64,000 nt of DNA from a virus (IMGVR_UViG_3300029288_005873:352001-416000), one strand, 5' to 3'; positions 25,014 to 51,880 are shown, counted from the stretch's first letter. Program-made: numbers and translations. Notes: generated by a model from the sequence alone, not told the origin.

Positions 25014-25015
25014 GG

Positions 25016-27802: not shown

Positions 27803-27803
27803 C

Positions 27804-28217
27804 TTATTTTCCTCCGGCGATATCTTTGATGGCGCAAAGCGCCCTTTCTATACGATAAGCGATTTTCGTACGCCTAGCTTCAGCGATATCTTGCGCCATC
27901 TTTTCAATAGCTTCAACCAGCGCCACGTCTGCAGCAAAAGCCTTTGGCTCTACGTTATCCAATTCTGGAGCCTTTGGCTCCTCAATATCTTCATCTTCCC
28001 AGGTCTCTTCCTGGATAGGTTGGAAAGCCTCAGCAGGCGTACCTGTAAGCAAGTTAGTCTCTTTGGCTATTTTTTCAAGCTCAGACATTACTTCGCTTGC
28101 CTGCCATGCACGCTTGTCCTCTGGTACAAAAGCCATCGAAATCCTCCTAGAATAATAACATTTACAACCAAAGAAACTCAAGAGTACCAATAAGTGCAGA
28201 AGGTGGGGCTGTAACAA
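27804..28217 (-). CDS. Small head-associated protein (start probably MAFVPE)
   Basis: WQASEVMSELEKIA shared with the N-termini of 22729 and 25016. Confidence 0.6.
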   Translation of the reverse strand: MLQPHLLHLLVLLSFFGCKCYYSRRISMAFVPEDKRAWQASEVMSELEKIAKETNLLTGTPAEAFQPIQEETWEDEDIEEPKAPELDNVEPKAFAADVALVEAIEKMAQDIAEARRTKIAYRIERALCAIKDIAGGK

Positions 28218-35164: not shown

Positions 35165-35773
35165 TTACTGACCCAAGGTTCCGTAATTGCTAAAGAATGG
35201 TTCCAATACAAAACCTTGGTTCATATTGGAAAGAAGACCGTCTTCCTGGAGTCCAACAGCTCCAGCCATAAAGTCGCCATCTTCATTCATCTGGAGGACG
35301 CCCCCTGGGGTAAGAGGAAGAAGACGACATGCGCAGTTACCATTAGTACACACCCCAGAACCAGGAAGACCCTCTTCTCTCCATTGACGCAATGTGCGCA
35401 TTCGTCCTTGACGGTCACCACATTCCTGACAGGAATTGGGAAACCTGTTACAAAACCAAAGAAAAAGGCGTTCATCTACGGGACCAGATTGTTTTCGACG
35501 AATCATATCATCCAGGCGGTCACCAGCAGCATTATCATATTTGTTGGCTGCTCCAGAATCGTTTTTCTTTTTGGAAAAAAGTTGCTTCAGATGTTCATAT
35601 TTTTTGCGCAACCAAGAAGAAAGTTTCGACCATTCCGCCGCATGTCGGATAAGACAATCGACAAAATCAGCCTCTCGTAACAGACCACGCTTGTCAAATT
35701 CATCTGCAAGACGCATAAGAGCAAATAGCTCGGTCATCGACCGCCTCCAGGATATCCTGTTGGTATCGAGCAT
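35165..35773 (-). CDS. Protein with helical tag and a MuF/SPP1-gp7-like Cys cluster
   Basis: SCQEC..RQG......W...GLPG...C..NCACRL; start probably MTELFAL. Confidence 0.55.
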   Translation of the reverse strand: MLDTNRISWRRSMTELFALMRLADEFDKRGLLREADFVDCLIRHAAEWSKLSSWLRKKYEHLKQLFSKKKNDSGAANKYDNAAGDRLDDMIRRKQSGPVDERLFLWFCNRFPNSCQECGDRQGRMRTLRQWREEGLPGSGVCTNGNCACRLLPLTPGGVLQMNEDGDFMAGAVGLQEDGLLSNMNQGFVLEPFFSNYGTLGQ

Positions 35774-37203
35774 ATAGAAAATGGAGAAAGAATAGTATCA
35801 ATTCCACTGTCATAGGACATACTGTCAGTGGTATAATGTAAGTCAGACGGAGTTGGCTCAAGCAAGTTCTGTTCAGCATGCGGCTCAATTTCAGCAAGCA
35901 TGCGACGCATTGCGGCAGTATCAACTGGAGGGTGTCTATGAGTATGTGGATCGTGCTGGCATGTTTCCGTAAACCTATCAATCATATGTGGAAAACGATC
36001 TTTGAATCCGAAACTTTTTGCTTCAGCATAAGCAAGGTCACAGGGCCAGCCACTTTCAGTGCGATATCGTGCAACCACACCACCCGTACGATCTGCGCCA
36101 TGTCTACAATGTACAAAAGCTGGTACCTCGTGTAGAAATCCAAAAATGTTAGGAGTAAGAACTTCCCAACCCTTATCTTCTGGACGTCCATCAGACAGTA
36201 GAGCATGGACGTGATGTATACCAAGTTTTCGGCACCAATCAGCAAGCTCAGGCATGTCGTCATTAAGTGTAACGATACGACGTACACCTAATTTATCACG
36301 CATTGCAGCAAGTTGTTCAATATTATCTGGTTGTCTGCCACGATATAGACCATTGGAGACTTTTGCAAAATTCCTTGGGAATTCATGATATGGATCCATG
36401 CGTGCTCTAAGTAATGCTATCGTCGGATCATCTAACATACCATTAGGCTCCAGAAAATTCATTTCCTGCCAACGGGCAAGATCCATATCAAATTCTGGCA
36501 TTGACGGTATGCGCCCAATCGTTCCAATAATATGACCTAGGCATCTAGCAACATCCCTTCGTCGTACAGCAGAAAGGTTATGCTTACGCGCAACATCAAG
36601 CGCTAATACAACTGGTACGCTTCCCTGCCTAAGAATTCTCAATCCGTCGCGAATAGCTCCTGCTACATTTCCTGCTGCAATCTTTGCGGTAAAAGCAAGA
36701 TCAGGTTCACCCATTGGAGCATTGGGCATAAATTTTTGCCTAATGCTGTCTAACTGGATGGCAGCATGTACAACATCAGGATACACTTTCCTTAAAGTTT
36801 CTCTAGCCTTAGCCTCTGCTTCAGACTCTCCAAGAAAAGGTGTAGCACCTGGGGAAATTGGACGTTCGGGTCCAATATGTCCACTCTCATGAGCTAAAAC
36901 CTCAACTATTGCGCGTTCAAGCGCGCTAGAAAAATCAGCAAGAGTGGGTTTGGCTCCTGCGGACTGTTCTCGAACCATTTGCTCTATTCGACCTTTGAAT
37001 AAATGAATTTCTTGCGGGTCATGCCCCTTCCCCGACTGGACATGACCGAGTTCTCCCCCACCACCAGAATGGACGATTATTTTACGAACACGAGAAAGTA
37101 GTCCTGGATCCCTCATCTTTATGCGCGACACAGCCTGCTGGACAGCTGGATCCAATGGTTCAATCACAACATCCATGGCACGTTTACTAATGGGGAGTTT
37201 CAT
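35734..37203 (-). CDS. Multidomain protein: HExxH domain, PG-binding-like segment, Tyr/dual-specificity phosphatase
   Basis: LAHESGH; WQEMNFLEPNGMLDDPT; NFAKV..GLYRG.QP and VHCRHGADRTG (CX5R). Confidence 0.85.
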   Translation of the reverse strand: MKLPISKRAMDVVIEPLDPAVQQAVSRIKMRDPGLLSRVRKIIVHSGGGGELGHVQSGKGHDPQEIHLFKGRIEQMVREQSAGAKPTLADFSSALERAIVEVLAHESGHIGPERPISPGATPFLGESEAEAKARETLRKVYPDVVHAAIQLDSIRQKFMPNAPMGEPDLAFTAKIAAGNVAGAIRDGLRILRQGSVPVVLALDVARKHNLSAVRRRDVARCLGHIIGTIGRIPSMPEFDMDLARWQEMNFLEPNGMLDDPTIALLRARMDPYHEFPRNFAKVSNGLYRGRQPDNIEQLAAMRDKLGVRRIVTLNDDMPELADWCRKLGIHHVHALLSDGRPEDKGWEVLTPNIFGFLHEVPAFVHCRHGADRTGGVVARYRTESGWPCDLAYAEAKSFGFKDRFPHMIDRFTETCQHDPHTHRHPPVDTAAMRRMLAEIEPHAEQNLLEPTPSDLHYTTDSMSYDSGIDTILSPFSICSIPTGYPGGGR

Positions 37204-38930
37204 ATTTTTGCCCCGATCGGTGTGCGTTTACGCGCAGGAATCTGATGAAGCATAAGATTTGCTACTTCATCCATTACGCGCTTAACAAAGAATGGATTAA
37301 GACCAGATAAAATATTCTTAACTAGCGATATACTTTGTCCAATAGCGGCAGTCTGTGGCATCTTTTTCTGGCTCATTTGACCCGTGGGAACCCTCAATAT
37401 CTTTCCCCTAATGCGCTGCATATATCTTGCTTTGTCCTTATCTGGTACACGGAACATAAGAAAATTGATAATCTTTACAATAGACTCAGCAGTTCTACGA
37501 ACTGGATCCTGTGCTCTCTTAGAAATTGGAACAAGCCTAGTGGCTCTACTAGACAAAGGAAGCTCATCATCCGACATCATGTCTAGATCAACACCATCTT
37601 CTTTTGCTTTAATACGCTTCTTTACTGCATCTATAACAGGACGCAAAATTTCCTTCTCCATCTCCCAATCGGACATTGGTCCTGTTTCCCTATTACCAAG
37701 CAATTCTGTTATTTCTGGATCTAATTCAGTCCGTTGTGCTTTATCGTAGTCGATTACAGTTGGTTCATCGCCCTCAGCATAATCATGATCAGCCAATTTC
37801 TTTTTGATCGGCATAATGGATGTTACTTTTTCCGCCCATCTTTTTCGGATGGGAGCCCCAATTACTGGATGTCTAACCCGTTCCAATTCACGTTTTGTTT
37901 GTTCCCAAGCTGTATTTTCTCGTTTAACATCTTCTGGGGATGCTGTAGTACCATCGGGAAATACCCAACTCGAATCATGTTGTTCCTCTGGATGTTTTGG
38001 CCAGTATTCTTCAATTGTAGTTTCAGACACCAAAAACTCGGGAGCACCAATGAGTAGATCATATCCAACAGGTGAAACACCTTTGACGAAACTGGAAATT
38101 ACACGATTCCTTGCCCGCTCGGCATGTTTGCGCGTTCGATAGAATGATATAGGAATTGTTCCCCACATTAGGGCAAAAGTCCCATGGGTAAGCCAGTTTT
38201 CCGGACCGTGTGGCATAAGATCTTTGATTTTGATACCGGCTTTTTGGAGAGCACGAATTCCAGCTTCAAAACGGGAAAGTTCTGTTCCGTCAGGAAATTT
38301 AACTACGGCAGAATCATTCCTCAACATTTCCATTAGTTTAGGAGTTTTGAAGACTTCCATCAGTTCTTCAGGTTTCCACATGGAAGGATCCAAGTGGATC
38401 GGCAAACGTTCCATTGCGGCACGCTTGGAGAATGGCAACAAAGCGGCCTGACGCGATGAAAGTGGAATAGAATCGATTTTCCTCAAAGTCTCATTCAAAT
38501 CGCGCTCATGCTCCATCTCATCCTCCAGTATCGCCACAACTATACTGCTGGTGTCTTTATCTGTCTCCTCTGTAACCCGAAGCAACTCACGATAAACTGC
38601 TATGGCGCATTTTTCCGCTTCCAGGTTTTGTTCCAATACTTCAACAGCAGAAAATCCTTCAGGGTCTACGTATCTACAATTAGAATTAGCCGCCCACTTA
38701 CTCGGATCACCTATCGGTCTAGCACCAAGTTGAACAAGGCGACTATATATTGCGTCAGCATGCCTCCTCTCATCATTGGCATGTTCAAGTAGTTCACCAA
38801 CCGCATGGGCTGGACCAAGAATAGCCTTTGCCCCAGCCCAATATTGATGGAATGCAAACCACTCATCAACATAAGCTTTACTAAGAAGTTCGACTACCCC
38901 AGGCATATTACCTTTCCCGCTCATAGCCAT
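37200..38930 (-). CDS. Multidomain protein with N-terminal ferritin-like (Dps-like/bacterioferritin) domain
   Basis: DEWFAFHQYW, EHANDERRHA, EAEKCAI, EDEMEHE di-iron motifs. Confidence 0.85.
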   Translation of the reverse strand: MAMSGKGNMPGVVELLSKAYVDEWFAFHQYWAGAKAILGPAHAVGELLEHANDERRHADAIYSRLVQLGARPIGDPSKWAANSNCRYVDPEGFSAVEVLEQNLEAEKCAIAVYRELLRVTEETDKDTSSIVVAILEDEMEHERDLNETLRKIDSIPLSSRQAALLPFSKRAAMERLPIHLDPSMWKPEELMEVFKTPKLMEMLRNDSAVVKFPDGTELSRFEAGIRALQKAGIKIKDLMPHGPENWLTHGTFALMWGTIPISFYRTRKHAERARNRVISSFVKGVSPVGYDLLIGAPEFLVSETTIEEYWPKHPEEQHDSSWVFPDGTTASPEDVKRENTAWEQTKRELERVRHPVIGAPIRKRWAEKVTSIMPIKKKLADHDYAEGDEPTVIDYDKAQRTELDPEITELLGNRETGPMSDWEMEKEILRPVIDAVKKRIKAKEDGVDLDMMSDDELPLSSRATRLVPISKRAQDPVRRTAESIVKIINFLMFRVPDKDKARYMQRIRGKILRVPTGQMSQKKMPQTAAIGQSISLVKNILSGLNPFFVKRVMDEVANLMLHQIPARKRTPIGAKI

Positions 38931-40056
38931 TGATTATACCGATCATGCGCTGTAGCAACTCCCACACATCAGATAAGGAGGTCCACCAGGTTCGCAGAGT
39001 CTGTTGTTCTTCCGCATCTCCCTTTTCCGAAGCCTTTTGCCATTTTGCCTGAAGTGTTGCGGCAAGTCTGGGTGCCGTGTCTTTCATTAGATAGCGCAGA
39101 TATGCACGTGAAGCCTGTATCTCACCTTTCTTGCCAGCATCCTGTAATCCAGATGAAGGACCATACATGCGAGCATACATGTCTTGACCATCATTCATCG
39201 CCCATGCGATAGCAGCAGGAATAAAAGCTCTTTCATCTTGTAGGACATCAGGTGGCGGAAAAGGCCAACGCAATTCTGTATCAGGTCGTATTTTCTGTTC
39301 AGATTTAGGCGTAGATTTTGCCGGCGTGCCTGGTTTAGTAGTAGGTGTAACAGAAGACTTTCCTGGAGGGGACCAAGGCATATTGACATAGCCGAGCTGT
39401 TCATGAACAGTTTTACGTCCAATGGATTCAGACAAGCGACCAAGCTGACCAAGATACTGTCCAAAGTTAATACCTTTAGCCTGCGCAAATTGTTTAGCAC
39501 GATCAAGGAGTTGCTGATTTGCACTAAAGAACTTGTTTACCCAATTCTCCTCTGCTTCACTCACAAGCCGTGGATCCGTAAGCACGCGCACAAGAGCTGC
39601 GCTATCCGCTTCGCCAAGCACCTCAAGAGCTTGAGCTAGAACCGTAAGCCTATGCATCTGTATTCCCTCCTTAATCAGGTCCTGTGCCAATCCCAGGTCA
39701 ATCGGTTCTATTACGATGTCCTGGGGCGTTATCTTTACATCATCGATCTTTTTCCAGTTATAGCCGGCTCCCGTTTCATACACACCTGGTGGAATATCAA
39801 TTACAAAAGCAGAATACCCATCACTTGTAATAACCCATTGGTGGTCTTCTCCATCTGGCGCACCGGGGACAGCCTCAACATTTTGTAGATGATCATATAT
39901 TGTTTCTATTATAGCATCAGCTACACGGTCACAGATTCCCCCAGTACCAAGTTCTGGGTCGAACCCCTCCTCGTCCAGCTGCCATTCGTCAACAATTTTT
40001 TGGGCTGCGAGAGCAATGTCAGGACGAATTGACTAAAGACGTTGCTGAAGATTCAT
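38908..40056 (-). CDS. Protein with N-terminal Cys-His-Asp (transglutaminase/papain-like) domain; in-frame TAG at codon 8 (40033-40035)
   Basis: Frame is open upstream of the tracked GTG (39783) through GGICDRVA...HQWV...VIDIP to an ATG at 40056 that overlaps the upstream stop (ATGA), with one TAG. Confidence 0.6.
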
Positions 40057-40814
40057 TCTTCTTCCATTTCCTCTGGATTTTCATAACGATATAAATCATC
40101 TTCCAAAGCATGAATTACATCAAACTCCGTAGATCTAAGCCATTCTTTCAGCTTTTGTAGAGAACTTTCCAAACTAGCAAGTAATGGATGATTTGTGGCA
40201 GCGGCAATTTTCGTCGCTTTATCAAAATTACGTACAATATCAATGGCTTCAAACCAAACATTATGTATTAAAGGTCTTGCCGCTTTTATGTATTTGACGA
40301 CTTCATCGTCATCAGAGGCATTTTGTTCTTTATTAGCTTTCTCTTCCATTTTCTCTAAACGAGTGTAGTAATCAGAAGGCAATTCAGTAAGATGATCTTT
40401 GGCAATTTCCTTAGCAGTTCCAACATCATCTGTGTGTTCAAGTTCAACTTTAACACCTTTTTCCAGTTGTGCGGGATCGAAATCCGAGTCAGGTTTGCCT
40501 TCCGCAAGTCCGCCTGGGATTTTTTCGGATCCACCAATTTCATTCTGGACAATGCCAAGAATTTGTTCCTCTGCTTTCTCACCATCCATTCCAAGGTCTT
40601 TTAGAATGACAACACAGTCACCAATAGCTGCTACGGCCTCCTCGAGTCTGTTTGCAAGATCCTCAGCCCGTAGATCAAGATCTTTATCATTGGGTTCACC
40701 TTTTTGAAAAAGATCAGGACCACCACCTCGTGCGAATTCAAGCATCTTATCGGGCTTCTCCTTGACATCAATTATGGCAATAGCCTTAGCCAAGCTTAGA
40801 ATCCTTTTGCTCAT
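40053..40814 (-). CDS. DUF5661-like protein (start revised to MSKRIL)
   Basis: IPGGLA...QLEKGVKVELEHT...AKEIAKDHLTE...YYTRL. Confidence 0.7.
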   Translation of the reverse strand: MSKRILSLAKAIAIIDVKEKPDKMLEFARGGGPDLFQKGEPNDKDLDLRAEDLANRLEEAVAAIGDCVVILKDLGMDGEKAEEQILGIVQNEIGGSEKIPGGLAEGKPDSDFDPAQLEKGVKVELEHTDDVGTAKEIAKDHLTELPSDYYTRLEKMEEKANKEQNASDDDEVVKYIKAARPLIHNVWFEAIDIVRNFDKATKIAAATNHPLLASLESSLQKLKEWLRSTEFDVIHALEDDLYRYENPEEMEEE

Positions 40815-41521
40815 TTCGCGGTCTCCTTTTCGAAGTGGTCCCACCAGTTGGCGGCATCTTTCGGAATCTCCTGCCCCTCGGGAGGCGGAAACAGGAAACC
40901 GGTGCGCAGCATGTAGCGCAGCTCACGGAATTTCCTGTACTCGAAACTGCCTTCGTCCACTAGACCGTCGCGGTACATGCCGCGGTAGCGCGCAGCCATC
41001 GCGTACAGCTTGTCGGCCGGCACATTGCGCGTCACATTATGGCATCCCCCAAGATTGGCGGACACGACCATGTCCGGGCAATCGGGGCAATCGGTCACGC
41101 CGCACTCCACGTCGAGCACCGCCGGCAGGATGGCGTCAAGCCTATCCGCCAGGACGATCTCCCCTTTCCTCTCCAGGAGCGCAGCTACCTTGCCCAATGT
41201 GACCGAAGCTGGCTTGTCGCCGGGAGGCTCCCCAAGGCTGGTGGCGACGATTTTCTCCAGGCAGTCCATCAGCGCGTCCGCGAAATGGAGCATGCCTTTC
41301 CTGTCCAGCTCGTCGGCTACCCCGACCATGCCATCCAAGGCGCCGCGACCCTTGAAAAAATAGATCTGCCCAAGGCGCTTCTTGGCTTCCTCCTTGGTCT
41401 TGTAGCAGCCGAAATTCTGGCGCTTGCCGCCCTTGGTCTTCTTGTGCCCGAAGACGCAGTACCCCTTGCCCTTCACCTTGCGGATGAAGGCGATCTTGAT
41501 TATGTTGGCCTGCTTCTCCAT
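40811..41521 (-). CDS. Hypothetical head-associated protein with two helical tags (start revised to MEKQAN)
   Basis: IRKVKGKGYCV...NFGCYKTKEEAKKRL domain; two LDxKG/LERKG tags. Confidence 0.65.
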   Translation of the reverse strand: MEKQANIIKIAFIRKVKGKGYCVFGHKKTKGGKRQNFGCYKTKEEAKKRLGQIYFFKGRGALDGMVGVADELDRKGMLHFADALMDCLEKIVATSLGEPPGDKPASVTLGKVAALLERKGEIVLADRLDAILPAVLDVECGVTDCPDCPDMVVSANLGGCHNVTRNVPADKLYAMAARYRGMYRDGLVDEGSFEYRKFRELRYMLRTGFLFPPPEGQEIPKDAANWWDHFEKETAK

Positions 41522-41529
41522 GCGCACCC

Positions 41530-41823
41530 CTAGCGCCCGCTGGGGGCGATCGGCTTGCCTGTCAGGGAAACCTTGATAGCTTTCCGCCAGTTGAAAGACG
41601 GATCCCACGACATCTTGATGTGGTCGCCGTTTATGTGGACAACGCCAACGCCCGGCACCTCGAACTCGAGCACGCCCTCGTCCACGTTTCTGATAAAGCC
41701 TTGGAAGTATTCCTTGTTTTGCGCCCAAACCTCGGCGTAGGTGATCGTCTCGGCATCCTCGCCGACAACAACACAGATCTCCTTGCCCACGAAGCGTTTC
41801 GCCAAATACTCAGCCATTCCCAT
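41530..41823 (-). CDS. Small protein, possibly Sm/LSm-like fold
   Basis: FVGKEICV...FQGFIRNVDEGVL...INGDHI pattern; downstream of promoter-motif copy 5. Confidence 0.5.
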   Translation of the reverse strand: MGMAEYLAKRFVGKEICVVVGEDAETITYAEVWAQNKEYFQGFIRNVDEGVLEFEVPGVGVVHINGDHIKMSWDPSFNWRKAIKVSLTGKPIAPSGR

Positions 41824-41842
41824 GTGTCAATCACCCCTACGG

Positions 41843-41865
41843 ATGCTGTATTATTGATAGGTTTT
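41843..41865 (-). promoter_or_regulatory. Putative late promoter motif, copy 5 (overlaps the stop of the upstream gene)
   Basis: AAAACC TATCAATA ATACA GCAT. Confidence 0.7.
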
Positions 41866-43947
41866 GGTCCGTTGCGACAGCGGGAGACTGTCGGCTCTTT
41901 TCGACAGGGGAAACACCTCCAACGACTGGACGGTGGTCGATTCGGGTTTGGTCCAGACCACCTTGCCCCTATCCGGATCATCAACCATGGAGAAGGTGAT
42001 CTGCGAGACATACATATTGCCCTCGGCGTTCCTGATCGCCTGGTCCAGGCTGTCGTATGAGGCGAGCACCCGCCCCCAGTAGTCCACTAGGTAGTAGGGT
42101 CCCCGTTTGGCGCGGAGCTCGGCCAGCATCTTCCTGGTCGACTCCGGCGACCTTTCCCACACGACCGGCTTGTCGCCCTTTTCCATGTACACGAACACAT
42201 CCCACGGATCGTCGTACTCGCTGTGGAACACCCGTGAGGACCACTGGAGATTCTCGGCGTTCCTGACGGCTTTGTCCTTGGTGGCATACCGCGCCACGAT
42301 GTTGTCGTCCATGTCGACGACATAGTACCGACCATTTGGATCACTGGGCTCCAGGCTCTCGCCCGACGGAAGGTCTTGCGGTCTCTCCAGACCCTCGGCG
42401 GCCACAGCCCAGTCCGGGATGTTCTGCGGCAGGATCACGCGCGGCTTGTCCTCGCGCATATGCTTGACGGGATCGTCGTATGTCTCCCAGATCCCTTTCC
42501 ACATGCGCTCATCCAGCGCAGGCTCGCGGAACAGCGGTTTCACCGTCCGCTTCACTTGGTCGGCGCGCCTCGACAGCGGTGGATCGTCCCCGCCCCTTTT
42601 CCTGCGGCCAATGGGGATGTCGGCAAATTTCTCGCCACCGACCTGGATGCGCACCTTGTCGGCTGTCCATTCCAGCTTCTCCGTGAGGTCCGGCAGCTCC
42701 GGCTTGTCATCGCAGGAATAGCACACGGTCATGTGCGGCACCCAGCCATGCTCGGACGGCAGCTCGATGATGTTGCCCACCGCCTCCTCGAGGTCCGCCT
42801 GTAGCGCGCTCAACCCCTTGGCATTCGGCACCACATACACCGGAGTGCCGTCCTTCTCTGGCGTGAACATGCCGGCCCCGGAAACGCTCATCTCCAGCGG
42901 CATGTGCCGCGCACAAACCCTCTCGACCGCCCGCTTGACCGCCGCGAGCGTCTTGTCATCCAGGTCGGCCGCCTTGCCGAGGTACAGCAGGGTCATGTGG
43001 AGGACATCGGAAAGCTCCTTGTCCTCCACCATCTTGGCTTTGCGCATCTTCTTGGCAATTGCTGGAGGAGCCATAAGTGCAAGCATTGCTCCACTATGTG
43101 CGGCACTTTTAGACAAAAGCGAGACATAAGATGCTCGCACCAGTGTATCTGGCGCCCATATGATTTCCATATCTGGCGGCAAAACAAGCTGGTCAAGCGG
43201 AGCAAAAACAGTCCTCTGATCCTCTAGCTCCGATTCGAATTGCAGATGTAACTGCGACTCGGACACCATAAATCGACCATTCAACTCACCCTTGTTTTCT
43301 GGCCAATGTTTAAGGCTAACGGGAATTCCCTCTAGTTTTTCATCAAAACTCATTCCCCTTCTTGGATTCCATGAACGAAAATTACCACCTTCGTCATATT
43401 CATAAGGTTCTTTCTGCTTGCCACCTTGAAGTACAATAACAGTCTTTGCTGCACGTTTTGAGATAGGCAATCCGTCAGAAGCCTTTTTTTCGCTACTAGC
43501 CTCCATTACCATCCATTTATTTCCACCACCTGCGCGAAAAAGTTTATAGATTCCCTTCTCTTTCTTACCTTTTAGACGGAAAACGATTTTAGTTCTACTT
43601 GCCTCAATTTCCTCATATGTTCCCGAATCATGGATTTCTACAGTACCAGCACCATAGCCTGCTGCGATCTCTCCTTTGAACTTTAGATATTCAACTGGAT
43701 GGTCTTCAGTTTTTATAGCTAGAAGCTTTTCCTTACCCTTGGGTAGTTTGTGCTTAGGGATACTCCATGACGACAATGTGCCATTATCGTTTTCCAATCG
43801 CAAATCATAATGATCGCGAGCTTTTTTCGCATGATGTAGCTGAATGACAAAACGATGCCTATTTCCACCCTTCTCCTTTTTACCCTTGGGCTCAGATGTT
43901 TCGTCAAATTCTCTTTTACTTTTATACTTCGCAAGTGGATCGGTCAT
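41851..43947 (-). CDS. Polyprotein-like: LigD 3'-phosphoesterase (PE) domain, unknown domain, 2H phosphoesterase (2'-5' RNA ligase-like), duplicated C-terminal domain
   Basis: LAKYKSKREFDETSEP, FVIQ.H, HYDLRLE, SWSIPK, TEDHP.EY, YGAG (LigD PE); HMTL and HMTV (2H); two YY[VL]VD repeats. Confidence 0.88.
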   Translation of the reverse strand: MTDPLAKYKSKREFDETSEPKGKKEKGGNRHRFVIQLHHAKKARDHYDLRLENDNGTLSSWSIPKHKLPKGKEKLLAIKTEDHPVEYLKFKGEIAAGYGAGTVEIHDSGTYEEIEASRTKIVFRLKGKKEKGIYKLFRAGGGNKWMVMEASSEKKASDGLPISKRAAKTVIVLQGGKQKEPYEYDEGGNFRSWNPRRGMSFDEKLEGIPVSLKHWPENKGELNGRFMVSESQLHLQFESELEDQRTVFAPLDQLVLPPDMEIIWAPDTLVRASYVSLLSKSAAHSGAMLALMAPPAIAKKMRKAKMVEDKELSDVLHMTLLYLGKAADLDDKTLAAVKRAVERVCARHMPLEMSVSGAGMFTPEKDGTPVYVVPNAKGLSALQADLEEAVGNIIELPSEHGWVPHMTVCYSCDDKPELPDLTEKLEWTADKVRIQVGGEKFADIPIGRRKRGGDDPPLSRRADQVKRTVKPLFREPALDERMWKGIWETYDDPVKHMREDKPRVILPQNIPDWAVAAEGLERPQDLPSGESLEPSDPNGRYYVVDMDDNIVARYATKDKAVRNAENLQWSSRVFHSEYDDPWDVFVYMEKGDKPVVWERSPESTRKMLAELRAKRGPYYLVDYWGRVLASYDSLDQAIRNAEGNMYVSQITFSMVDDPDRGKVVWTKPESTTVQSLEVFPLSKRADSLPLSQRTKTYQ

Positions 43948-46900
43948 TTGCCTTCCTCCAGCCGTTTCTTGAGGATTTTGTCAAATTCTTCAAGCTGTTC
44001 GGGCATGCCGAGCCTTCTTAATGTTTTACGCCAAATAGAGAACAGCTTGACATCGTTTTCTTTATTATCAGCCAAACGTCCGATTGCTCCCATCACACCG
44101 GCCATCTCATCTTCCTTATCGGGAAGATCTTTACGCAGGTCAAGAATACGCTGTTTCGGACGCCATCCTGTATGGCTTGGCATCATTAGCGCTTTTACCA
44201 ACACAGGAGATCCTTCTGTCAAAGTTGTTGAGGAATCAAAAATTATGCGAGATTTATCATGCGTATCCATCTCGTCCAAATGGCTTGCCTTACCTTGCGC
44301 AAGTTTTTGTCCATCCTCTGGCAGTATTGGAGTCATCATCTGGATATTATTAGGCGTTCCTGAAAAATCCCAAATTCCCTCCACAAGAGCTAAGTATAGA
44401 TTTTTGCTCTGCTTATCATATGAGCTACTCTTGCCTTCTTCAGCACGCATTGTCCTTTTGCCAAGTGGAGAGTTTTCTCCATAATGTAAACCACATTCGG
44501 CAAACAAAACATCTCCAGAACGCTTTACGACTGAAAGGAAATAACATCTAGGAGGAACCCTATCTTGGTCAATATTGGTTAGATATGGGCGCAGATCTAC
44601 AAAACCATTTTCTTGCTGAAGAACTTTTGAGAACCATGTCTGTATAATACTTGATACTATTTGATCAGCCCCATTGCGTGGCATTGATCTAACTTCGAGG
44701 TGGTCCTTGATCTCCCCAGTTTTCTTATCGATAACTTTTCTTAGTACAGGCATGCGTTTTGTGAAAAATCCCACAAGATGTAGTGGATGTATATATGACC
44801 ATTCTAAAACAGCATCATAGAGTAGAGATTGTAGTCTTGATGTGCGATTCCCCTTTATTCCACCAGTGCGTTCCGCATGCTCAAGTTTTCTGCGATAAAA
44901 CTCCTGCCGCAAAGACGATGACAGTTCCATGTAGTAGAGTTTCTCATTTTGATCATTCAGAAACTCATTTGTGCCAGTCGTTTGTTCGATACCAGTCTGC
45001 TGCTTTGTATCCTCAACTCTGTTTTTGGCTGTCTCAGGATCAGCTGGTTCAAACGATGCTGGCTGTTCCCATCTAGTAGTTCTCGGAGGATCAATAAATA
45101 GACCACCCATATGACTTCCACCAGGATCCATTTTTCCTTTCCCAAAAGCCTGTCTTGGTGTAAATTTGGCATCATCGAATGGGCAATGGAAAGGCACATC
45201 CCACAACCACTTTGGTGGAGTTCTAGCAGCTGTTTCCGATACAGCACCCTCTTTACCACCATCTTCAGCTTTCTGTCCTTGTGGATTCTCAACAATACCA
45301 TAAACACTGGCAAGTTTTCGCCGCGCCTCATTTCCTTCAGCCGTCTGCCAGAATGGACTTTCCCAATCCACGAAAGTCAACGGAATTCGTTGACCTGGAC
45401 AATTTTCATTTATACAAGACATGTGCTGACTTGGTATATCCAGCATTCTACGACGATTGCTTATTTCAACCCTGAGTGTATTTCTTTCTGCCTCAAGAGC
45501 TTCAACCTGGTACCCGTCGGACCTTAATGTATCAGAAAGACTAACTATTCTTGCTTTCAGTTCCCTATTGCTCGGATCGAGCGCAAGCTCTTTTTCAGCT
45601 TCTGTTTTTTTAGCCTTGGTTTCATCCAATGTCTGATTCGCGTTTGCAACACCCATTTCCTTAATCCGTAGTTCCTTCTCCTTAGTATCTAGAATCTCAG
45701 CGCATGTTGGACATTTGAATTTTGGATGCCTACGGGACAAACCTTCTTCCTGCGTCTCATGTATAGATGTCTGCGAAAGAATAGGTGGAGCAGTCTTTAT
45801 ATCGCGCCTATTGCGACAATAACTACATACGGGTTTTCTATTTGCCGAAAAACCTTGACGCTTTCCAGCATCTGCCATCATGCGCCTATTTAATGCGTCA
45901 TATATATATCCATCCAAACTACCAGCTGGTGTTTTGGTGGCTAGATAAAATTGTAGGATTTTGGCAACGTGCCAGTTAACCAATGCAATAAAGGCTCTTC
46001 CAACATCGGTTCCATCAAGATCCTCATTGCGTATTTTTTTATATTCCTCAGAAGTCAATAATCCAAAGGGCGCATCTCCTACACTTCTGCGCCGTTTGTT
46101 GATATCCCACCAACGCTTGCCAACCGCCAGGACTATTTTCGGCAAAATAAATTCTTGTATCATTCCCTTTTTGGCAGGATTGGAAACCATCTCTTTCAGA
46201 GCTTCCCAAGTTTCGCGTTTCTGAAATAAACGTCTAATAGAAGCACCATCGGACAAATCCTCAGCATCAAAAGGAAATCCCGGAGGAGTGGCGGTTACCT
46301 CGACCCACGTACCGTTGGTTGAGGGTGGATTTAGTTCAACTGACAGATTCCATTCATTTGATTCCTGTTTGCGATGAACTTTTGTCCAAAGATCAGGAGT
46401 AGATTTTTCTACTGGTAGAACTGGAGGCGGAACAGGAGCCTGTGGGATTTCTTTTTCGTCATCCTCTTCAAACTCCTGACGTTCAAACTCAAGAAGGCGT
46501 CTTGCCACTTCTTCATCACTCATACGCCCCCCACCAACTTGATCAGCCAATTTCCAAAGCGCAGCTAGTTTGCGCATTGCGGCATTTTCATCCAACATTG
46601 CCTCTGACAAAGTTGGTGCCCCATCAAGCCGTCGCGCTAAAATATCCGCCAACGATTCCGCATCGTCAGGTCCGACCGCCGTGAAAAGGTCACCATCACG
46701 CTCCACCGGCATTCCCGTCCATTCTGCTCCAGCCTCTAGCATATCGGGACGAATTTCCGACCAACCGGTTATTTGACGACCTTTAACTAGATTTGCCTTT
46801 GCAGCCAAAAGAGGAGCATGACAAATAAGCGCCACAGGTTTTTCACTCTCGACAAAATCACGAAGTAGTTGCTGAGCTATCAGATCGTCCGAAAAACCAA

Positions 46901-48077
46901 TCATGCCTTTGCCACCAACTACAAATAGTCCATCAAATTTTGTAGGCTTAACATCTTTGATTTCAATATCAATCTCAATAGTGGTCCCTTGCGCGCCAAC
47001 AGCCTTAGTACCACTAGTTGCCACAGATACATCCATACCCCTCTCTGAAAACACTTTGCGCGGAATAGAATATTCTGTCTCATAAAACTCATTTGGAGCC
47101 ACAAGCATAAGAACATGTTTGTGCGCATCTGATGCGCTCTGTTCAACGGTCTCAAGCTGCCCTTCGAATGGTGTCATAGTTTCCATGAATGCCCTCATGG
47201 CCTTCTCCGTAAGTCCAAGTTTCTTTGCGATAGCGTCAGCTGTCATCATTGAACCAGACATGTTGAGGATGCGGTTCCTGTATGTGGATATAAGCATATC
47301 TGCCTGCTGTCTTGCTTCCGCCAACTCGTTTGGGAAGAAAATATTACTCATGGACTTTTTGAATGCGGAGGTTGGACCATATAGCCGAAGCATTGCATCC
47401 ATTGATGATTCCCTAGCCTCGCGCTCGGCAGGCTGTTTTCGGTAACTCTCTACTCCCTTCTCCACTTGAATGTGTTCGCCAATAGCCTCTGGATAAAAAG
47501 CCATCTGGACAAAGTGCGTAAGCTCATGCGCAGCAGATTCCACAACAAACTGTCGCCACGCCTCCTCATTGCCTTTTCCAGATGCCAATGCGTTGAGTTC
47601 TTCTGCTGATGCAAAGAACACATAGATGTTCGATTCAGGGAGAGCTTGCCCCCTTATGCCAAAGCTCTCTGGTCGGAATGACAAGAAAACATTTGGCTTT
47701 TTGTACAAAAAGCGCTCCGGTCCAACTGGATCGAGCACAAGTTTACCTACTGGTGTGCGTAGCGCCAAAGATTGAAAAACTCGCTTCTCAAGCTGGTTTA
47801 CAGCATGTTCAATCCACGCCTCGCTCAGTTGCGGATCCATCCCTTTCTTTATCTGCTCCGACAATTTACTGCTTACAATATCCTCGATATGGTCTACCAC
47901 TTTACGGACATTTGGCACAAGTTTCCTAGCAGCCGCACGCAAAGTGGCAATGTTCGCCTGTGGACCTGAAGTGTTTGACAAGGCTGTACGCTCAGCCTCA
48001 TGTAAACTAGAAACCAGCTTGCTTTTCATTTCTTGCGGCATGGATTCCCATGTTTGCCTTGTGAGCCGAACCATCAA
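43944..48077 (-). CDS. Multidomain protein: HExxH metallopeptidase-like, DJ-1/PfpI, Zn-finger/coiled-coil region
   Basis: AAHELTH...EREA; EFYETEY, VVGGKG and LICHAP (DJ-1/PfpI); CSYC, CPTC, CINENC and CPFD. Confidence 0.8.
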   Translation of the reverse strand: MMVRLTRQTWESMPQEMKSKLVSSLHEAERTALSNTSGPQANIATLRAAARKLVPNVRKVVDHIEDIVSSKLSEQIKKGMDPQLSEAWIEHAVNQLEKRVFQSLALRTPVGKLVLDPVGPERFLYKKPNVFLSFRPESFGIRGQALPESNIYVFFASAEELNALASGKGNEEAWRQFVVESAAHELTHFVQMAFYPEAIGEHIQVEKGVESYRKQPAEREARESSMDAMLRLYGPTSAFKKSMSNIFFPNELAEARQQADMLISTYRNRILNMSGSMMTADAIAKKLGLTEKAMRAFMETMTPFEGQLETVEQSASDAHKHVLMLVAPNEFYETEYSIPRKVFSERGMDVSVATSGTKAVGAQGTTIEIDIEIKDVKPTKFDGLFVVGGKGMIGFSDDLIAQQLLRDFVESEKPVALICHAPLLAAKANLVKGRQITGWSEIRPDMLEAGAEWTGMPVERDGDLFTAVGPDDAESLADILARRLDGAPTLSEAMLDENAAMRKLAALWKLADQVGGGRMSDEEVARRLLEFERQEFEEDDEKEIPQAPVPPPVLPVEKSTPDLWTKVHRKQESNEWNLSVELNPPSTNGTWVEVTATPPGFPFDAEDLSDGASIRRLFQKRETWEALKEMVSNPAKKGMIQEFILPKIVLAVGKRWWDINKRRRSVGDAPFGLLTSEEYKKIRNEDLDGTDVGRAFIALVNWHVAKILQFYLATKTPAGSLDGYIYDALNRRMMADAGKRQGFSANRKPVCSYCRNRRDIKTAPPILSQTSIHETQEEGLSRRHPKFKCPTCAEILDTKEKELRIKEMGVANANQTLDETKAKKTEAEKELALDPSNRELKARIVSLSDTLRSDGYQVEALEAERNTLRVEISNRRRMLDIPSQHMSCINENCPGQRIPLTFVDWESPFWQTAEGNEARRKLASVYGIVENPQGQKAEDGGKEGAVSETAARTPPKWLWDVPFHCPFDDAKFTPRQAFGKGKMDPGGSHMGGLFIDPPRTTRWEQPASFEPADPETAKNRVEDTKQQTGIEQTTGTNEFLNDQNEKLYYMELSSSLRQEFYRRKLEHAERTGGIKGNRTSRLQSLLYDAVLEWSYIHPLHLVGFFTKRMPVLRKVIDKKTGEIKDHLEVRSMPRNGADQIVSSIIQTWFSKVLQQENGFVDLRPYLTNIDQDRVPPRCYFLSVVKRSGDVLFAECGLHYGENSPLGKRTMRAEEGKSSSYDKQSKNLYLALVEGIWDFSGTPNNIQMMTPILPEDGQKLAQGKASHLDEMDTHDKSRIIFDSSTTLTEGSPVLVKALMMPSHTGWRPKQRILDLRKDLPDKEDEMAGVMGAIGRLADNKENDVKLFSIWRKTLRRLGMPEQLEEFDKILKKRLEEGK

Positions 48078-51000
48078 TCGTTTCCTCTTTTGATTTTACC
48101 AGCGTCTCTGAAAAGCGCCAGTCGTAAAGAAGCAACAGCTATGCCCGGCTGTCCCTGCGCCGAAGACTGGTATGGCATCGGTGTAATTGCCCCACCGTCC
48201 CCAAATGGTCCAGTATCCGAGTCTTTGCCGCCAAAATTGTTATTCCCATAGTCGTCGTCCGTGTTCTGAGACAACGGCTTCTTCACCTTCCCCCAGGTTT
48301 CGCCCAACGACCCCGGAACACGCAAACTACCCTTGTTGTGAAGCGTACTTACATCGGTCCGCATTCCTTTACCCTTTACCGTACTGGTAGTCGCACCCTC
48401 AAAATCTTCATTAAGTTTATCAAGTAGTGCGCGCAATTCTTTACGCAAACCATCTATCCCAACTTTCTCGCCTAACTTAAATTCAATATGTAGACCCGTG
48501 CCACCGCTCTGATATATCTTGGACGGAACACCATACTTCTCTTTAATGGCGGATGAAGCTTTTCTAGCATACTCTTTTGCTTTATCTAAGGAATATCCTC
48601 CATGGAGATCTAGGTCGACAAAACCAATATCAGTTTTGGTCCCAAAGACCTCATGTATTGCCAACATTCGTCGTTTCACCCAATACCAATAGTTGTTTGG
48701 TGAATCCGAGTTTTTCTCTTCATCATTTTCAATTACGATAGATTTGTCGTCATGATTACGCTTTAGGATTTTCTCATTTTTGCCAACCCCAAGATAGATC
48801 AGCACAGGAACGCTTTTAATACGAGACATTATCTGTTTACGAACAATAGGCTTGGCATAATGGTCATATATCTGTCCACGCGTCAACTTTACACCATCCT
48901 TGTCGATCAAAACCTCGCCGCGCTTCTTCTCATCCAAGTCCCCATCGTCAGCCTTGTTTTCGAACCGGCAAAAACGAATTACCACATAGCGCCTGTTTGG
49001 TCCAAACTTATGCTCAAGAGACCTAGCAACGTGTTTACCGAAGCTTTTTTCGATACGTGGTAAACTCATTGTCTCTTTTGAAAGGATCTTGATACGACAA
49101 ATATCTCCACCAGAATAGGTAACAGCCCTTACAACCTCATCCACTGCCACTGGCATATCAGCTAATCGTATAGTCCTTTCCATCTTGCCAGACTTGATAT
49201 CCTGGGCAAAATTACCTGGGAATGCCAATGTGCCTGTATTTTCCGAAGCTTCCTTGCGCAAATGATCAATTCTCCGTGAAAAACGTAGCCAAGCATGTTC
49301 GCCTATCATTTTCTTCAGCTTTTCTTTCGGGATCCCAGCACGCTCCGCCACCTCAAGAAAAACTGTGCGCCGCAAATCATCTTCGGGTACTTGCCTACCT
49401 TCGCTTTCTAGAATATCCCTAACCTGCTTTAGCATATGCTTATATTTCCCGAACAAGTTCGGAGGCATACGCGACTCGACATCCACCTGGGTACGACCAA
49501 CTGGTTCATGCGTTTTGCGCACGTCAGTATTCAGAACAATAGGCATACCCCACATCTCAGATGGAAGAAACCATCCAAGTTCCATGGGATCGTCCACTGT
49601 CCATAGCATCAGTTTTGGTTGTGGTTGACTCCTATCTATACGCATAAGTGTCAGACCAACCGACCTTAGGTCATCAGGGCGAACAATATCATAATTCAAC
49701 CAGCGCTTAACTAGATCAATTATACCTGATGCACGTTCTACATAGTCCGGACGTTCTTTTGAACTGATAGGATGTGTTTCCGCCAGTGCCATTTTGAGAG
49801 CATGAGTACGGCAAACCTTTTTGCCGCCAAGGAAAGCAGCTATACGATCAGCAACTTTTCCAGGAAAGCCTCCCGTTCCACCATTGGATGGAATTCCAGC
49901 AAGCATGGCATTCGCGATCCCGGCAAGGTCGGGTTCAGTTTTTTTCAGCGCTTCTAATGCCTGCCTATATCTTGAACTCTGTATGTAGTGTAAATTTCCT
50001 TTTCCAAAAGGTTTCCTGTTGAGGAGAAACTGTTGGACGCGACCTACACCACTTGCATTTGCAATAACAATGAGCTGATATGGATTAAAGGCACCAGGAG
50101 CCGACGTGTCATATCCAGATTTTCGCAGCATATCAACTACAGCGTTGATCCTGGATGTAAAATCGGCCATCGAAGCCTTCTCCAATAGATTTGACAACGC
50201 CTTATTCTTTCGTATACTGGCAGAATTAAATTGTCGTCTAAATTTCTGAAAAGCTGTTGGAGCCATCTGCGATAAATAAGCTTGTGTCAATGAACTCAAG
50301 GCAACATTATCTGTTATGTATTGTTCATATACACGCTCAAGTATACGTTTGAAAGTCTCCGAATCGGTGTCAAAACCAAGATTGCGCAAAACAGAAGTAT
50401 CTATAACCCTGCCCACAAACCCATCGCCCCTTTTCTCTACAACCATATCAGGACGCCTGATGAAAGTCTTTTCCATGCGCCTCACTGGCGAAAGACCTTG
50501 GATATCCTTGGGATTAACTGGAACGGTTTTCCAGATATTTACCTTCTTCAGTTTTCCAATAGTATCTAACCAGATTTTTGAAAGTTCCTTCATCTCCTCT
50601 GGAGACATGGTAGTAGCTGCCTGCGCACCAGGCATACGGGAAAGTTTAGATAGCAAATATGGTCCATGTACCTGCGTAGGTCCAAAAGATGTGCCAGCAT
50701 CTCCGACCGTATCGGTCCTCCCTCCAGATTCAAGTTTGGACATAATCCTAAACATTTTGTCGCCATCTACGCCACCAATATTACCGATACCTCCAACTGT
50801 TTGTGGTTTTTTATCAACAGCTCCCTCAAGTGCCGTCACAAGTTCGTTCGGATCGGGAATACCCGCAAACGCAAACATAGCTTTACGACTAATTTCTGCT
50901 GGCTTGAACTCATCAATATGTTCTACATGGAATTCATGCATGGTTGCATCCTTTGGCTTTTTATCATCCCGAAATCTTAGAAACTTTTGGTGGCGAAGAC

Positions 51001-51880
51001 CTCCAGGAACACGTTCCTGGAAACCTATCTCAATGACAAAAAGTCCCTTTTCTAGATGCTTCTTGATCTCAGCTTCATTTTCTTCGGAAAAATTGTCTAT
51101 CTCGCTGATTGCATACAATTTACCTTTATGGTATTGACCAAACTGCGCCATCAGCTTTCCAGTTTTACTTCTTGTTGTTCCGTAAACAACATAGTCATCA
51201 GAGTCGTGTTTTCCAGCGCCGCCTTTGTATTTCCACATTGTATCTGCAGGTTTTGGCTCATTCTCACCTTTAGGTTTCCACTGGTATTTTGCACCCTTAA
51301 GTTTAAGTACGATGCCTTCGCCTCCTTTCTTAACCGCACTATTCATTACATTCTGCCATTCGGAAAATGGATACTGTTCGGTAAGCTTCACTATATCTGA
51401 CACTTTCACGGCAGATTCCAAAAGTTTACGCCGATCGGAAAAAGGTTTACCTGCTACATTATTTCCCTTGTGCCACAGGATGTCATACAAATACAACCTC
51501 ATCTCTCCAGGTAAACTTTTAGCCTTCTCCACAGCCTTATCTGCCGAACTCCCAGCAAGTGATGTAACCTTTGTCACATCCTGCTTACCCTTGTCCCAAT
51601 ATGTCAACTCACCTTCGACCAACGTGCCATCGGGTAGATTTTCCAGCTCTTTGACGATTGATGGAAAGTTTCCAGTGACATCTTCACCGCTGCGACTGTA
51701 TATACTGATTTTTCCACCAGTTTTTATAACTTGTGCCTTCCAACCATCGAGCTTTGGTTCTACGACAATATCTTCACGACGATGGTCCTTCAGGACCTCG
51801 TCGGCATCGTCAACCTCAGTCAGACGCATCAGAGTCACTGGCACGAGTTCAGCGGCATGCCGAGAAATGGGCAGATACAT
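48074..51880 (-). CDS. Polyprotein-like: ATP-dependent DNA ligase, lysozyme/transglycosylase-like domain, ASCH domain, LigD-type primase-polymerase (AEP)
   Basis: EPKLDG, EGE, YDIL, EGIVLK and WKYK (ligase); LESGG...SFGPTQ; IKSGKMERTIR (ASCH); VDLD, SGGTGLHI and LRVPGS (AEP). Confidence 0.88.
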   Translation of the reverse strand: MYLPISRHAAELVPVTLMRLTEVDDADEVLKDHRREDIVVEPKLDGWKAQVIKTGGKISIYSRSGEDVTGNFPSIVKELENLPDGTLVEGELTYWDKGKQDVTKVTSLAGSSADKAVEKAKSLPGEMRLYLYDILWHKGNNVAGKPFSDRRKLLESAVKVSDIVKLTEQYPFSEWQNVMNSAVKKGGEGIVLKLKGAKYQWKPKGENEPKPADTMWKYKGGAGKHDSDDYVVYGTTRSKTGKLMAQFGQYHKGKLYAISEIDNFSEENEAEIKKHLEKGLFVIEIGFQERVPGGLRHQKFLRFRDDKKPKDATMHEFHVEHIDEFKPAEISRKAMFAFAGIPDPNELVTALEGAVDKKPQTVGGIGNIGGVDGDKMFRIMSKLESGGRTDTVGDAGTSFGPTQVHGPYLLSKLSRMPGAQAATTMSPEEMKELSKIWLDTIGKLKKVNIWKTVPVNPKDIQGLSPVRRMEKTFIRRPDMVVEKRGDGFVGRVIDTSVLRNLGFDTDSETFKRILERVYEQYITDNVALSSLTQAYLSQMAPTAFQKFRRQFNSASIRKNKALSNLLEKASMADFTSRINAVVDMLRKSGYDTSAPGAFNPYQLIVIANASGVGRVQQFLLNRKPFGKGNLHYIQSSRYRQALEALKKTEPDLAGIANAMLAGIPSNGGTGGFPGKVADRIAAFLGGKKVCRTHALKMALAETHPISSKERPDYVERASGIIDLVKRWLNYDIVRPDDLRSVGLTLMRIDRSQPQPKLMLWTVDDPMELGWFLPSEMWGMPIVLNTDVRKTHEPVGRTQVDVESRMPPNLFGKYKHMLKQVRDILESEGRQVPEDDLRRTVFLEVAERAGIPKEKLKKMIGEHAWLRFSRRIDHLRKEASENTGTLAFPGNFAQDIKSGKMERTIRLADMPVAVDEVVRAVTYSGGDICRIKILSKETMSLPRIEKSFGKHVARSLEHKFGPNRRYVVIRFCRFENKADDGDLDEKKRGEVLIDKDGVKLTRGQIYDHYAKPIVRKQIMSRIKSVPVLIYLGVGKNEKILKRNHDDKSIVIENDEEKNSDSPNNYWYWVKRRMLAIHEVFGTKTDIGFVDLDLHGGYSLDKAKEYARKASSAIKEKYGVPSKIYQSGGTGLHIEFKLGEKVGIDGLRKELRALLDKLNEDFEGATTSTVKGKGMRTDVSTLHNKGSLRVPGSLGETWGKVKKPLSQNTDDDYGNNNFGGKDSDTGPFGDGGAITPMPYQSSAQGQPGIAVASLRLALFRDAGKIKRGND

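Follow-up and report, generated by a model that had tools for sequence, protein, structure and literature searches.

In T4, the internal proteins IPI-III and Alt carry an N-terminal capsid targeting sequence that is cut by the prohead protease gp21 (PMC9026906, PMC9958956), and in the giant phages phiKZ and SPN3US many proteins are packaged, cut at a short consensus and ejected (PMC5694885, PMC10052503). Packaged and processed multi-enzyme proteins were put forward as a general idea by Iyer, Burroughs, Anand, de Souza and Aravind (2017), whose polyvalent proteins are large chains of unrelated enzyme domains, 2H among them, encoded among late or virion genes; a zincin-like peptidase is their hub domain, predicted to process the chain, and delivery with the DNA was proposed (PMC5512222). 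Encapsulins fill their HK97-fold shell with enzymes, ferritin-like proteins among them, by way of targeting peptides such as GSLxIGSLK or LTVGSLRR (PMC10960027). Here we describe a seven-residue peptide of consensus hydrophobic-(P)-[L/I/F]-S-K-R-A, called the tag below, that recurs at the edges of enzyme modules in multi-domain proteins of an uncultured huge phage (~442 kb). The window analyzed is a stretch of 64,000 nucleotides, bases 352001-416000 of the 441,904-bp contig IMGVR_UViG_3300029288_005873. Its relevant genes all lie on the (-) strand; by descending coordinate they are large terminase, portal, a block of multi-domain genes (the cargo block), protease-scaffold, further head proteins and major capsid protein.

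As in polyvalent proteins (PMC5512222), unrelated enzymes share one chain here, namely a ligase and a PrimPol-like region, a LigD 3'-phosphoesterase (LigD-PE) and 2H, a ferritin and an unknown module, a zincin and a PTP phosphatase, and ASCH and topoisomerase IB (TopoIB), and four of the genes have a late or virion location, between portal and prohead protease. Unlike in that description, which holds no delimiter motif and uses the word 'linker' 0 times, a strict seven-residue tag stands at module edges and also opens free single-module genes; moreover, the Pfam model MPTase-PolyVal does not fit the zincin found here. Otherwise unrelated proteins have a short N-terminal leader in common here and in T4, where they are packaged and injected with the DNA. 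The T4 leader, however, ends in L/I-x-Glu and is served by an S77 protease, whereas the tag is basic (S-K-R-A), lacks Glu and is also found internally and at C-termini, and the Pfam S77 model has no match. The short A/S/G-x-Glu consensus of phiKZ and SPN3US is also present on capsid and scaffold proteins, unlike the motif described here (PMC5694885, PMC10052503). With encapsulin targeting peptides the tag shares spaced hydrophobic residues, small and basic residues, a flexible segment, and terminal and repeatable placement; the sequence is another, the likeness being one of physico-chemical layout only, and the shell here is a portal-bearing, DNA-packing phage capsid (PMC10960027). No description of the motif was found in the literature, a full-text search for LSKRA with 'phage' giving unrelated matches only. 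An earlier note on this DNA, which had regarded the linker as undescribed, is thus borne out for the literature searched; the idea of packaged and processed polyvalent proteins had itself been published in 2017 (PMC5512222).

A peptide tag at the edges of enzyme modules

The tag is real, is selected as a peptide, is placed in disordered segments, marks the borders at which modules have been shuffled and is restricted to cargo proteins. In 610 called open reading frames (ORFs) comprising 139,903 amino acids (aa), the strict pattern P-[ILFV]-S-[KR]-R-A occurs in 8 copies, whereas residue shuffles give 0.16 on average and at most 2, an enrichment of ~50-fold. Three window genes flanked by portal and prohead protease, for proteins of 489, 576 and 698 aa, hold six of the strict copies; the other two are outside the window. 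The copies that the earlier note had listed, including the weaker and degenerate ones, are all present (Table 1). Degenerate forms LLSKSA and EISRKA occupy sites at which relatives hold a related or a canonical copy (the start MPPLSKTA of P0055; asfLLSKRA in L008 and L010), and, where the window has EISRKA and FSRRI, the aligned sequences of L008 and L010 have canonical LLSKRA and LISKRA.

The codons for Pro, Ser, Lys, Arg and Ala differ from copy to copy, third positions being free to vary, which indicates selection on the peptide rather than a repeat of the DNA. The peptide is also kept between phages whose cargo proteins are just 36-45% identical. In a set of 156 distinct copies, collected with a pattern that fixed Ser at +1 and Arg at +3, position -2 is hydrophobic (F in 37%), -1 is P in 49%, 0 is L in 68%, I in 20% and F in 11%, +2 is K in 71% and +4 is A in 74%. 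In copies gathered before any pattern fixed either residue, Ser was found in 63/63 and Arg in 61/63.

AlphaFold models, built on alignments of homologues, were obtained for two of the proteins (489 and 698 aa), and every motif copy in both lies in a disordered segment. In the 698-aa model, the copies at 161, 457 and 680/689 occupy stretches with a predicted local distance difference test (pLDDT) score <50, set between three folded parts: LigD phosphoesterase (32-149), 2H (286-445) and an alpha/beta domain (541-666). In the 489-aa model (mean pLDDT 80), the motif (aa 1-9) is disordered and the first strand of the folded domain follows directly. The codons, and the models in which the copies occupy disordered segments next to folded domains, support the proposal of a peptide-level signal placed at N-termini and in the linkers that join the domains of multi-enzyme proteins, the genes being flanked by portal and prohead protease.

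Not all copies separate domains. Among the 156 distinct copies, 87 are internal. Another 54 fall within the first 16 residues, 1-6 residues after the start Met, and the remaining 15 are found in the final 25 residues; a cut at such terminal copies would take off a few residues only. That so many copies stand right behind the Met or just ahead of the stop argues for a role beyond the separation of domains.

In the 1268-aa polyprotein, Pfam detects DNA_ligase_A_M (E 3e-31); in the 698-aa polyprotein, LigD_N (E 3e-25) and 2_5_RNA_ligase2 (E 3e-17); and in the 576-aa polyprotein, Ferritin (E 1.4e-19). The 489-aa protein combines a zincin-fold module with an HESGH signature (~36802-37158), a helical region with weak likeness to PG_binding_1, and a PTP/DSP phosphatase (~35938-36393) whose model has a structure match with Z 14.8. 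The earlier assignments of ligase, LigD-PE, 2H, ferritin and phosphatase were upheld by Pfam or structure; that of a polymerase corresponds to a sub-threshold match to LigD_Prim-Pol (E 0.0017), and that of a muramidase-like domain after the ligase was not upheld, with no Pfam support even at E 1.

The tag is also found away from the head genes. A 1216-aa ASCH/TopoIB polyprotein, encoded ~95 kb from the head genes of the window, has copies at aa 404 and 660 that bracket the topoisomerase core (Pfam 435-633), and a 351-aa protein encoded near it has a tandem copy at its C-terminus (Table 1). The expectation that the motif would be confined to head-region genes was thus not borne out: it is restricted to cargo-type proteins, not to the head region.

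Shuffling of tagged modules in relatives

The queries used to gather relatives, ~300 proteins and 30 loci from uncultured viral contigs, were the proteins of 489 and 698 aa, the ferritin region and the protease domain. The order of the cargo genes between portal and protease is kept in 12 relatives, and tagged genes lie nearly all in the portal-to-protease block. Nearly all of the 47 homologues of the 489-aa protein start with M-x(1-5)-[P/L]-L-S-K-R-A; the longer ones have an extra N-terminal module, with the motif exactly at the joint. Module Q, the C-terminal end of the 576-aa polyprotein, is a separate gene of 108-130 aa in nine relatives, usually opening with a tandem motif, and the tandem copies ahead of it are conserved; in three relatives (P0170-P0172) a tandem motif joins ferritin straight to module Q. 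In another (L002), a DJ-1 protein is fused to the PE-2H polyprotein. The LigD-PE, 2H, TopoIB, zincin and PTP modules occur in many different orders, TopoIB being found inside the head block, and module Q, zincin, PE, 2H and TopoIB are each found fused or free, the free forms opening with the tag.

The borders of homology were located by an all-against-all comparison. Internal homology starts at most 5 residues from a motif in 19% of cases, compared with 1.1% for random positions, and ends 6-15 residues ahead of a motif in 12% compared with 1.5%. Since homology starts at the motif and ends just before the next one, the motif appears to move with the module downstream of it. Conservation of the motif where domains are shuffled, one of the points on which the earlier note had asked for evidence, is seen in relatives, modules being reshuffled exactly at the motif. 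Motif density was 1.54 per 1000 aa in phage-type LigD-PE/2H homologues and 0.054 in bacterial LigD in the same search. When a phage collection was searched by tblastn, no match was obtained for the 698-aa or the 489-aa protein, and the ferritin polyprotein had a single match, on a 5.7-kb fecal contig.

The distribution of the tag around the head genes was counted in 12 cargo-rich relatives with the pattern [ILFM]SKR[ASTV]. There were 36 copies in 44,166 aa of proteins encoded upstream of the protease gene, 0 in 11,967 aa of protease-scaffold proteins and 0 in 11,284 aa of downstream head proteins; the protease-scaffold protein and the major capsid protein of the window likewise have no tag copy. 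Eight more distant relatives with the same protease family (51-61% identity) have a compact head block without enzyme polyproteins, and in these there were 0 motif copies in 46,225 aa and no HExxH module.

Proposed loading, probable cutting and candidate readers of the tag

We give about even chances to the reading that the motif is an address tag for loading cargo modules into the capsid, carried at the N-terminal edge of each enzyme module of virion-delivered polyvalent proteins. As with the capsid targeting sequence of T4 internal proteins, the tag would be recognized in trans while the head is being assembled, and each tagged module, fused or free-standing, would be taken into the procapsid. 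The leader would then be clipped, and the same tag would let the polyproteins be diced into separate enzymes (DNA ligase, PrimPol, 3'-phosphoesterase, 2H, topoisomerase IB, ferritin and phosphatase), which would enter the host with the DNA. If the tag is an address, the chain is probably also cut at it. Placement of one tag per module and the equivalence of fused and free forms suggest that each module needs its own copy, and the distant tagged TopoIB polyprotein, together with the TopoIB modules in the head block of relatives, points to a signal that acts in trans. An address tag of the T4 kind is the simplest model to account both for the need of one copy per module and for the many copies at the termini. 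Packaging of the tagged enzymes into the virion is suggested by gene position and by published analogues.

Several points weigh against loading by an address tag. The case for packaging is one of synteny, and the binding partners and proteases considered below are candidates. The high-scoring segment pairs counted in the all-against-all comparison are not independent events, large as the effect is. Phage G, the only cultured relative, is without these cargo genes and has four small genes only between portal and protease. Some junctions, between PrimPol and DJ-1 and between DJ-1 and the large module, are untagged, as is the whole 1377-aa DJ-1 protein. Finally, the head proteins have a different N-terminal leader, as detailed below, so that two addressing codes would have to coexist.

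If the tag directs loading or cutting, the set of proteins that an uncultured huge phage injects could be recognized from sequence by a simple rule. The kit here comprises a full non-homologous end-joining set (ligase, PrimPol and 3'-phosphoesterase) with topoisomerase IB, 2H, ferritin, phosphatase and DJ-1, and it would suggest that such phages arrive in the cell with enzymes of their own for repairing and protecting the genome. Several orphan modules, module Q and the zincin family among them, would gain a first functional context; a tag so short and portable could be tried as a means of getting foreign proteins into large capsids; and the processing predicted for polyvalent proteins in 2017 would become testable, with defined sites and two named candidate peptidases.

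Judging from the sequences, the candidate readers of the tag are the prohead core (protease-scaffold), the cargo zincin peptidase and the capsid shell. It is unlikely that the tag has no part in loading and that tagged chains are cut in trans by the zincin module of the 489-aa protein, either ahead of packaging or once injected, as Iyer et al. (2017) predicted for the zincins of polyvalent proteins (PMC5512222). Residues H105, E106, H109, E126 and E130 of the module, metal and catalytic residues among them, are invariant in 24 homologues, and residues 16-134 of the model match the predicted zincin 3e11_B (Z 8.5, root-mean-square deviation 3.3, 94/114 residues aligned). The HExxH and Glu residues and the fold fit the MPTase hub pattern, whereas the Pfam model itself (PF18818, MPTase-PolyVal) has no match in the genome. 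A profile search of 1.84 billion representative proteins gave 39 zincin matches at E 1e-30 or better; the best-scoring 40 new matches hold 2.67 motifs per 1000 aa, often flanking the module on both sides, and more distant zincins 0.23. Furthermore, the module is present in 11/12 of the cargo-rich genomes sampled and missing, like the motif, from the eight cargo-less ones, a co-occurrence that is biased, however, by the use of the zincin protein as query for most loci. One locus (L011) encodes tagged proteins, yet its portal-to-PTP block is devoid of a zincin. In 16/24 homologues the module adjoins the weakly peptidoglycan-binding-like region, so that a wall peptidase or effector is also conceivable, and in the window a gap of only 2-3 residues between tag and zincin core makes cleavage in cis unlikely there.

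Rather unlikely, too, is a pure cleavage linker without addressing role, at which the prohead protease domain of the 1289-aa protein would cut packaged polyproteins at ...S-K-R-A. The protease itself is well supported, as the earlier note had it (Table 1): its domain is 33% identical to gp19 of phage G (E 3e-36), although a profile search against Protein Data Bank (PDB) sequences gave no match, and the part fused to it is scaffold-like, being coiled and repeat-rich, so that homology and position beside scaffold and capsid genes agree with a prohead protease. Its identity among 19 relatives is 51-82%. A role in cutting would suit the place of the cargo genes between portal and protease, the high conservation of the protease domain (63-82%) in every motif-bearing relative, and the cutting of internal proteins by the T4 and phiKZ/SPN3US proteases (PMC5694885, PMC9026906). 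There are also faintly motif-like sequences in the scaffold and capsid proteins. K-K-x-L-[S/L/A/Q]-R-A ends both tandem repeats of the scaffold, is kept in 17/18 aligned scaffold proteins at the first and 18/18 at the second, and might be a maturation cleavage site; the capsid extension has I-[V/S]-K-[Y/F]-A-[S/T]. The scaffold sequence resembles the cargo motif but is one residue shorter, and this four-residue form never occurs in cargo, with [ILFM]SRA found 0 times against 2.3 expected and [ILFM]SKRA 97 times. The exact motif is missing from protease-scaffold, capsid protein and other head proteins and is not conserved in the portal, copies at the extreme termini are left unexplained, and the eight distant relatives with the same protease family carry zero motifs.

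Head proteins have instead a second signal, [VM]-x-E-F-x-K-I-A-x-E, at residues 10-21 of the 425-aa and 928-aa proteins (window 22729-28217); a 137-aa ORF has it at residue 43, and the scaffold holds a single such site (ELLKLAAE, aa 839). Its E-F-x-K-I-A-x-E part, at residues 12-20 in two or three head proteins, is conserved in cargo-rich relatives. This leader resembles the capsid targeting sequence and gp21 site of T4 and the Glu-type sites of T4 and phiKZ proteases (PMC9026906), which speaks against the basic tag as the site of the prohead protease. Cutting of the tag by this protease is possible but not favored. The tandem repeats of the scaffold span aa 515-548 and 624-660 (AY.QGGGGVN.PQ.YPKEDSDKIRDTQDKQMVGEGMEPG.DGLAGNDLA.KQKL.RA).

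No other peptidase came forward as a reader of the tag: Pfam S8, S77 (PF03420), S78_2 and MPTase-PolyVal have no match in the genome. A Trypsin_2 protease (genome 425701-426144) was considered as a reader of K-R|A and set aside: it is a secreted protein with a signal of lipoprotein type, its gene has RecA-like and DnaJ-like neighbors, and five relatives, one of them 84% complete, lack it. The RecA-like, Trypsin_2 and DnaJ-like genes lie side by side (L025:224-3049; genome 424424-427249), ~8-11 kb past the high end of the window.

By analogy, docking on the shell or core without a protease would best account for the terminal and tandem copies. It is nevertheless quite doubtful that a clade of phage-G-like huge phages loads DNA-repair and stress enzymes into a DNA-filled capsid through a dedicated seven-residue peptide that docks on the HK97-fold shell or core in the manner of encapsulin targeting peptides, as a code separate from the prohead protease and with the cargo zincin as dicing enzyme. 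If so, tailed phages would possess a second means of loading cargo, and a portable one, that links their capsids functionally to encapsulins. The major capsid protein has no sequence match to encapsulins in PDB at E up to 1.

A role outside the capsid, either as a modification sequon on the invariant Ser or Arg or as a docking site for a cytoplasmic host or phage factor acting on repair enzymes, is improbable. It would suit the near invariance of both residues in the 63 copies gathered before a pattern was set (the 156-copy logo agrees, but its pattern requires both), the nucleic-acid-end-repair theme of the tagged enzymes, and the one tagged gene far from the head block. The tagged genes of relatives, however, are nearly all in the portal-to-protease block, placement per module and the equivalence of fused and free forms suit cargo logic better, and no candidate modifying enzyme was identified. 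That the tag is a chance similarity or a scar of DNA recombination at module joints, as the recombination of modules at motif sites might suggest, is effectively refuted by the codon variation and the enrichment over shuffles, and ill fits a peptide kept between such divergent proteins.

Coordinates and neighboring genes

Table 1. Head genes, tagged proteins and individual tag copies; positions are those of the window unless marked as genome positions.
Feature	Position	Strand	Description
Large terminase	56692-58521	(-)	
Portal, 1053 aa	53518..56679	(-)	Intein-bearing (Hint + LAGLIDADG); PHROG portal E 1.3e-50; Pfam Hint/LAGLIDADG
1268-aa polyprotein	48074..51880	(-)	MYLPISRHA, ATP-dependent DNA ligase, EISRKA, unknown modules, FSRRI, LigD-type PrimPol-like region
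MYLPISRHA	51854-51880	(-)	Weaker copy (PISRHA); N-terminus of 1268-aa ligase polyprotein
EISRKA	50879-50896	(-)	Degenerate; after DNA ligase, 1268-aa polyprotein
FSRRI	~49268-49282	(-)	Degenerate; 1268-aa polyprotein
1377-aa DJ-1/PfpI protein	43944..48077	(-)	Untagged; large conserved C-terminal region; Pfam DJ-1_PfpI E 7e-36
698-aa polyprotein	41851..43947	(-)	LigD 3'-phosphoesterase, LPISKRA, LLSKSA, 2H phosphoesterase, PLSRRA, alpha/beta domain (aa 541-666), tandem FPLSKRADSLPLSQRT
LPISKRA	43450-43470	(-)	After LigD 3'-phosphoesterase, 698-aa polyprotein
LLSKSA	43102-43119	(-)	Degenerate; before 2H domain, 698-aa polyprotein
PLSRRA	42562-42579	(-)	After 2H domain, 698-aa polyprotein
FPLSKRADSLPLSQRT	41866-41913	(-)	C-terminal tandem tag, 698-aa polyprotein
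576-aa polyprotein	37200..38930	(-)	Ferritin-like domain (aa 14-154), tandem tag, ~290-aa unknown module, tandem tag, module Q
PLSSRQAALLPFSKRA	38418-38465	(-)	Tandem tag after ferritin-like domain, 576-aa polyprotein
PLSSRATRLVPISKRA	37512-37559	(-)	Tandem tag before module Q, 576-aa polyprotein
Module Q, ~100 aa	37203-37511	(-)	Basic, helical, conserved; C-terminal end of 576-aa polyprotein
489-aa protein	35734..37203	(-)	MKLPISKRA, zincin-fold metallopeptidase-like module, helical region, PTP/DSP phosphatase
MKLPISKRA	37177-37203	(-)	N-terminus of 489-aa protein
Prohead protease and scaffold-like region, 1289 aa	30372..34241	(-)	Protease at aa ~1-250; phrog_18299 head maturation protease E 4.8e-12
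Major capsid protein, 341 aa	20770..21795	(-)	PDB 6wkk (phage G gp27) E 2.8e-93
ASCH/topoisomerase-IB polyprotein, 1216 aa	genome 254535-258185		Two strict copies and one PISRHA
351-aa protein near the ASCH/TopoIB gene	genome 260623-261678		C-terminal tandem copy PLPLSKRVTIPISSRSK

The portal, which is 33% identical to that of phage G, forms the upstream boundary of the cargo block. Its intein spans ~aa 156-545; the portals of L017 and L021 also have an intein, and those of L018, L019 and L024 are intein-free. An N-terminal PVSIRT (aa 18) was rejected as a tag copy and attributed to a chance match, the portals of relatives having [VIL]-R-x-x-P-K without Ser. The major capsid protein is 74-97% identical to those of four relatives and 55% identical to phage G gp27. 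It has a conserved 43-aa N-terminal extension (…VKDALAQIVKYA[ST]…) without counterpart in gp27, which could possibly be a propeptide.

Within the cargo block, a 263-aa protein (40053-40844) has a DUF5661 domain (E 1.3e-11); this protein and its neighbors of 291 and 305 aa are untagged, yet kept at the same place in relatives. The 1377-aa DJ-1 protein has an HELTH sequence (HExxH; AAHELTHF) near aa 187, in an N-terminal module (aa 1-319; 47121-48077) for which the sampled loci gave no homologue and Pfam no match, and which may be a second metallopeptidase-like module. Outside the window, a SET-domain protein (374 aa) adjoins the ASCH/TopoIB polyprotein (L001:5427-10185; genome 253427-258185), and in relatives (P0038, L012) the PTP/zincin protein of the head block includes fused modules of the SET and TopoIB types.

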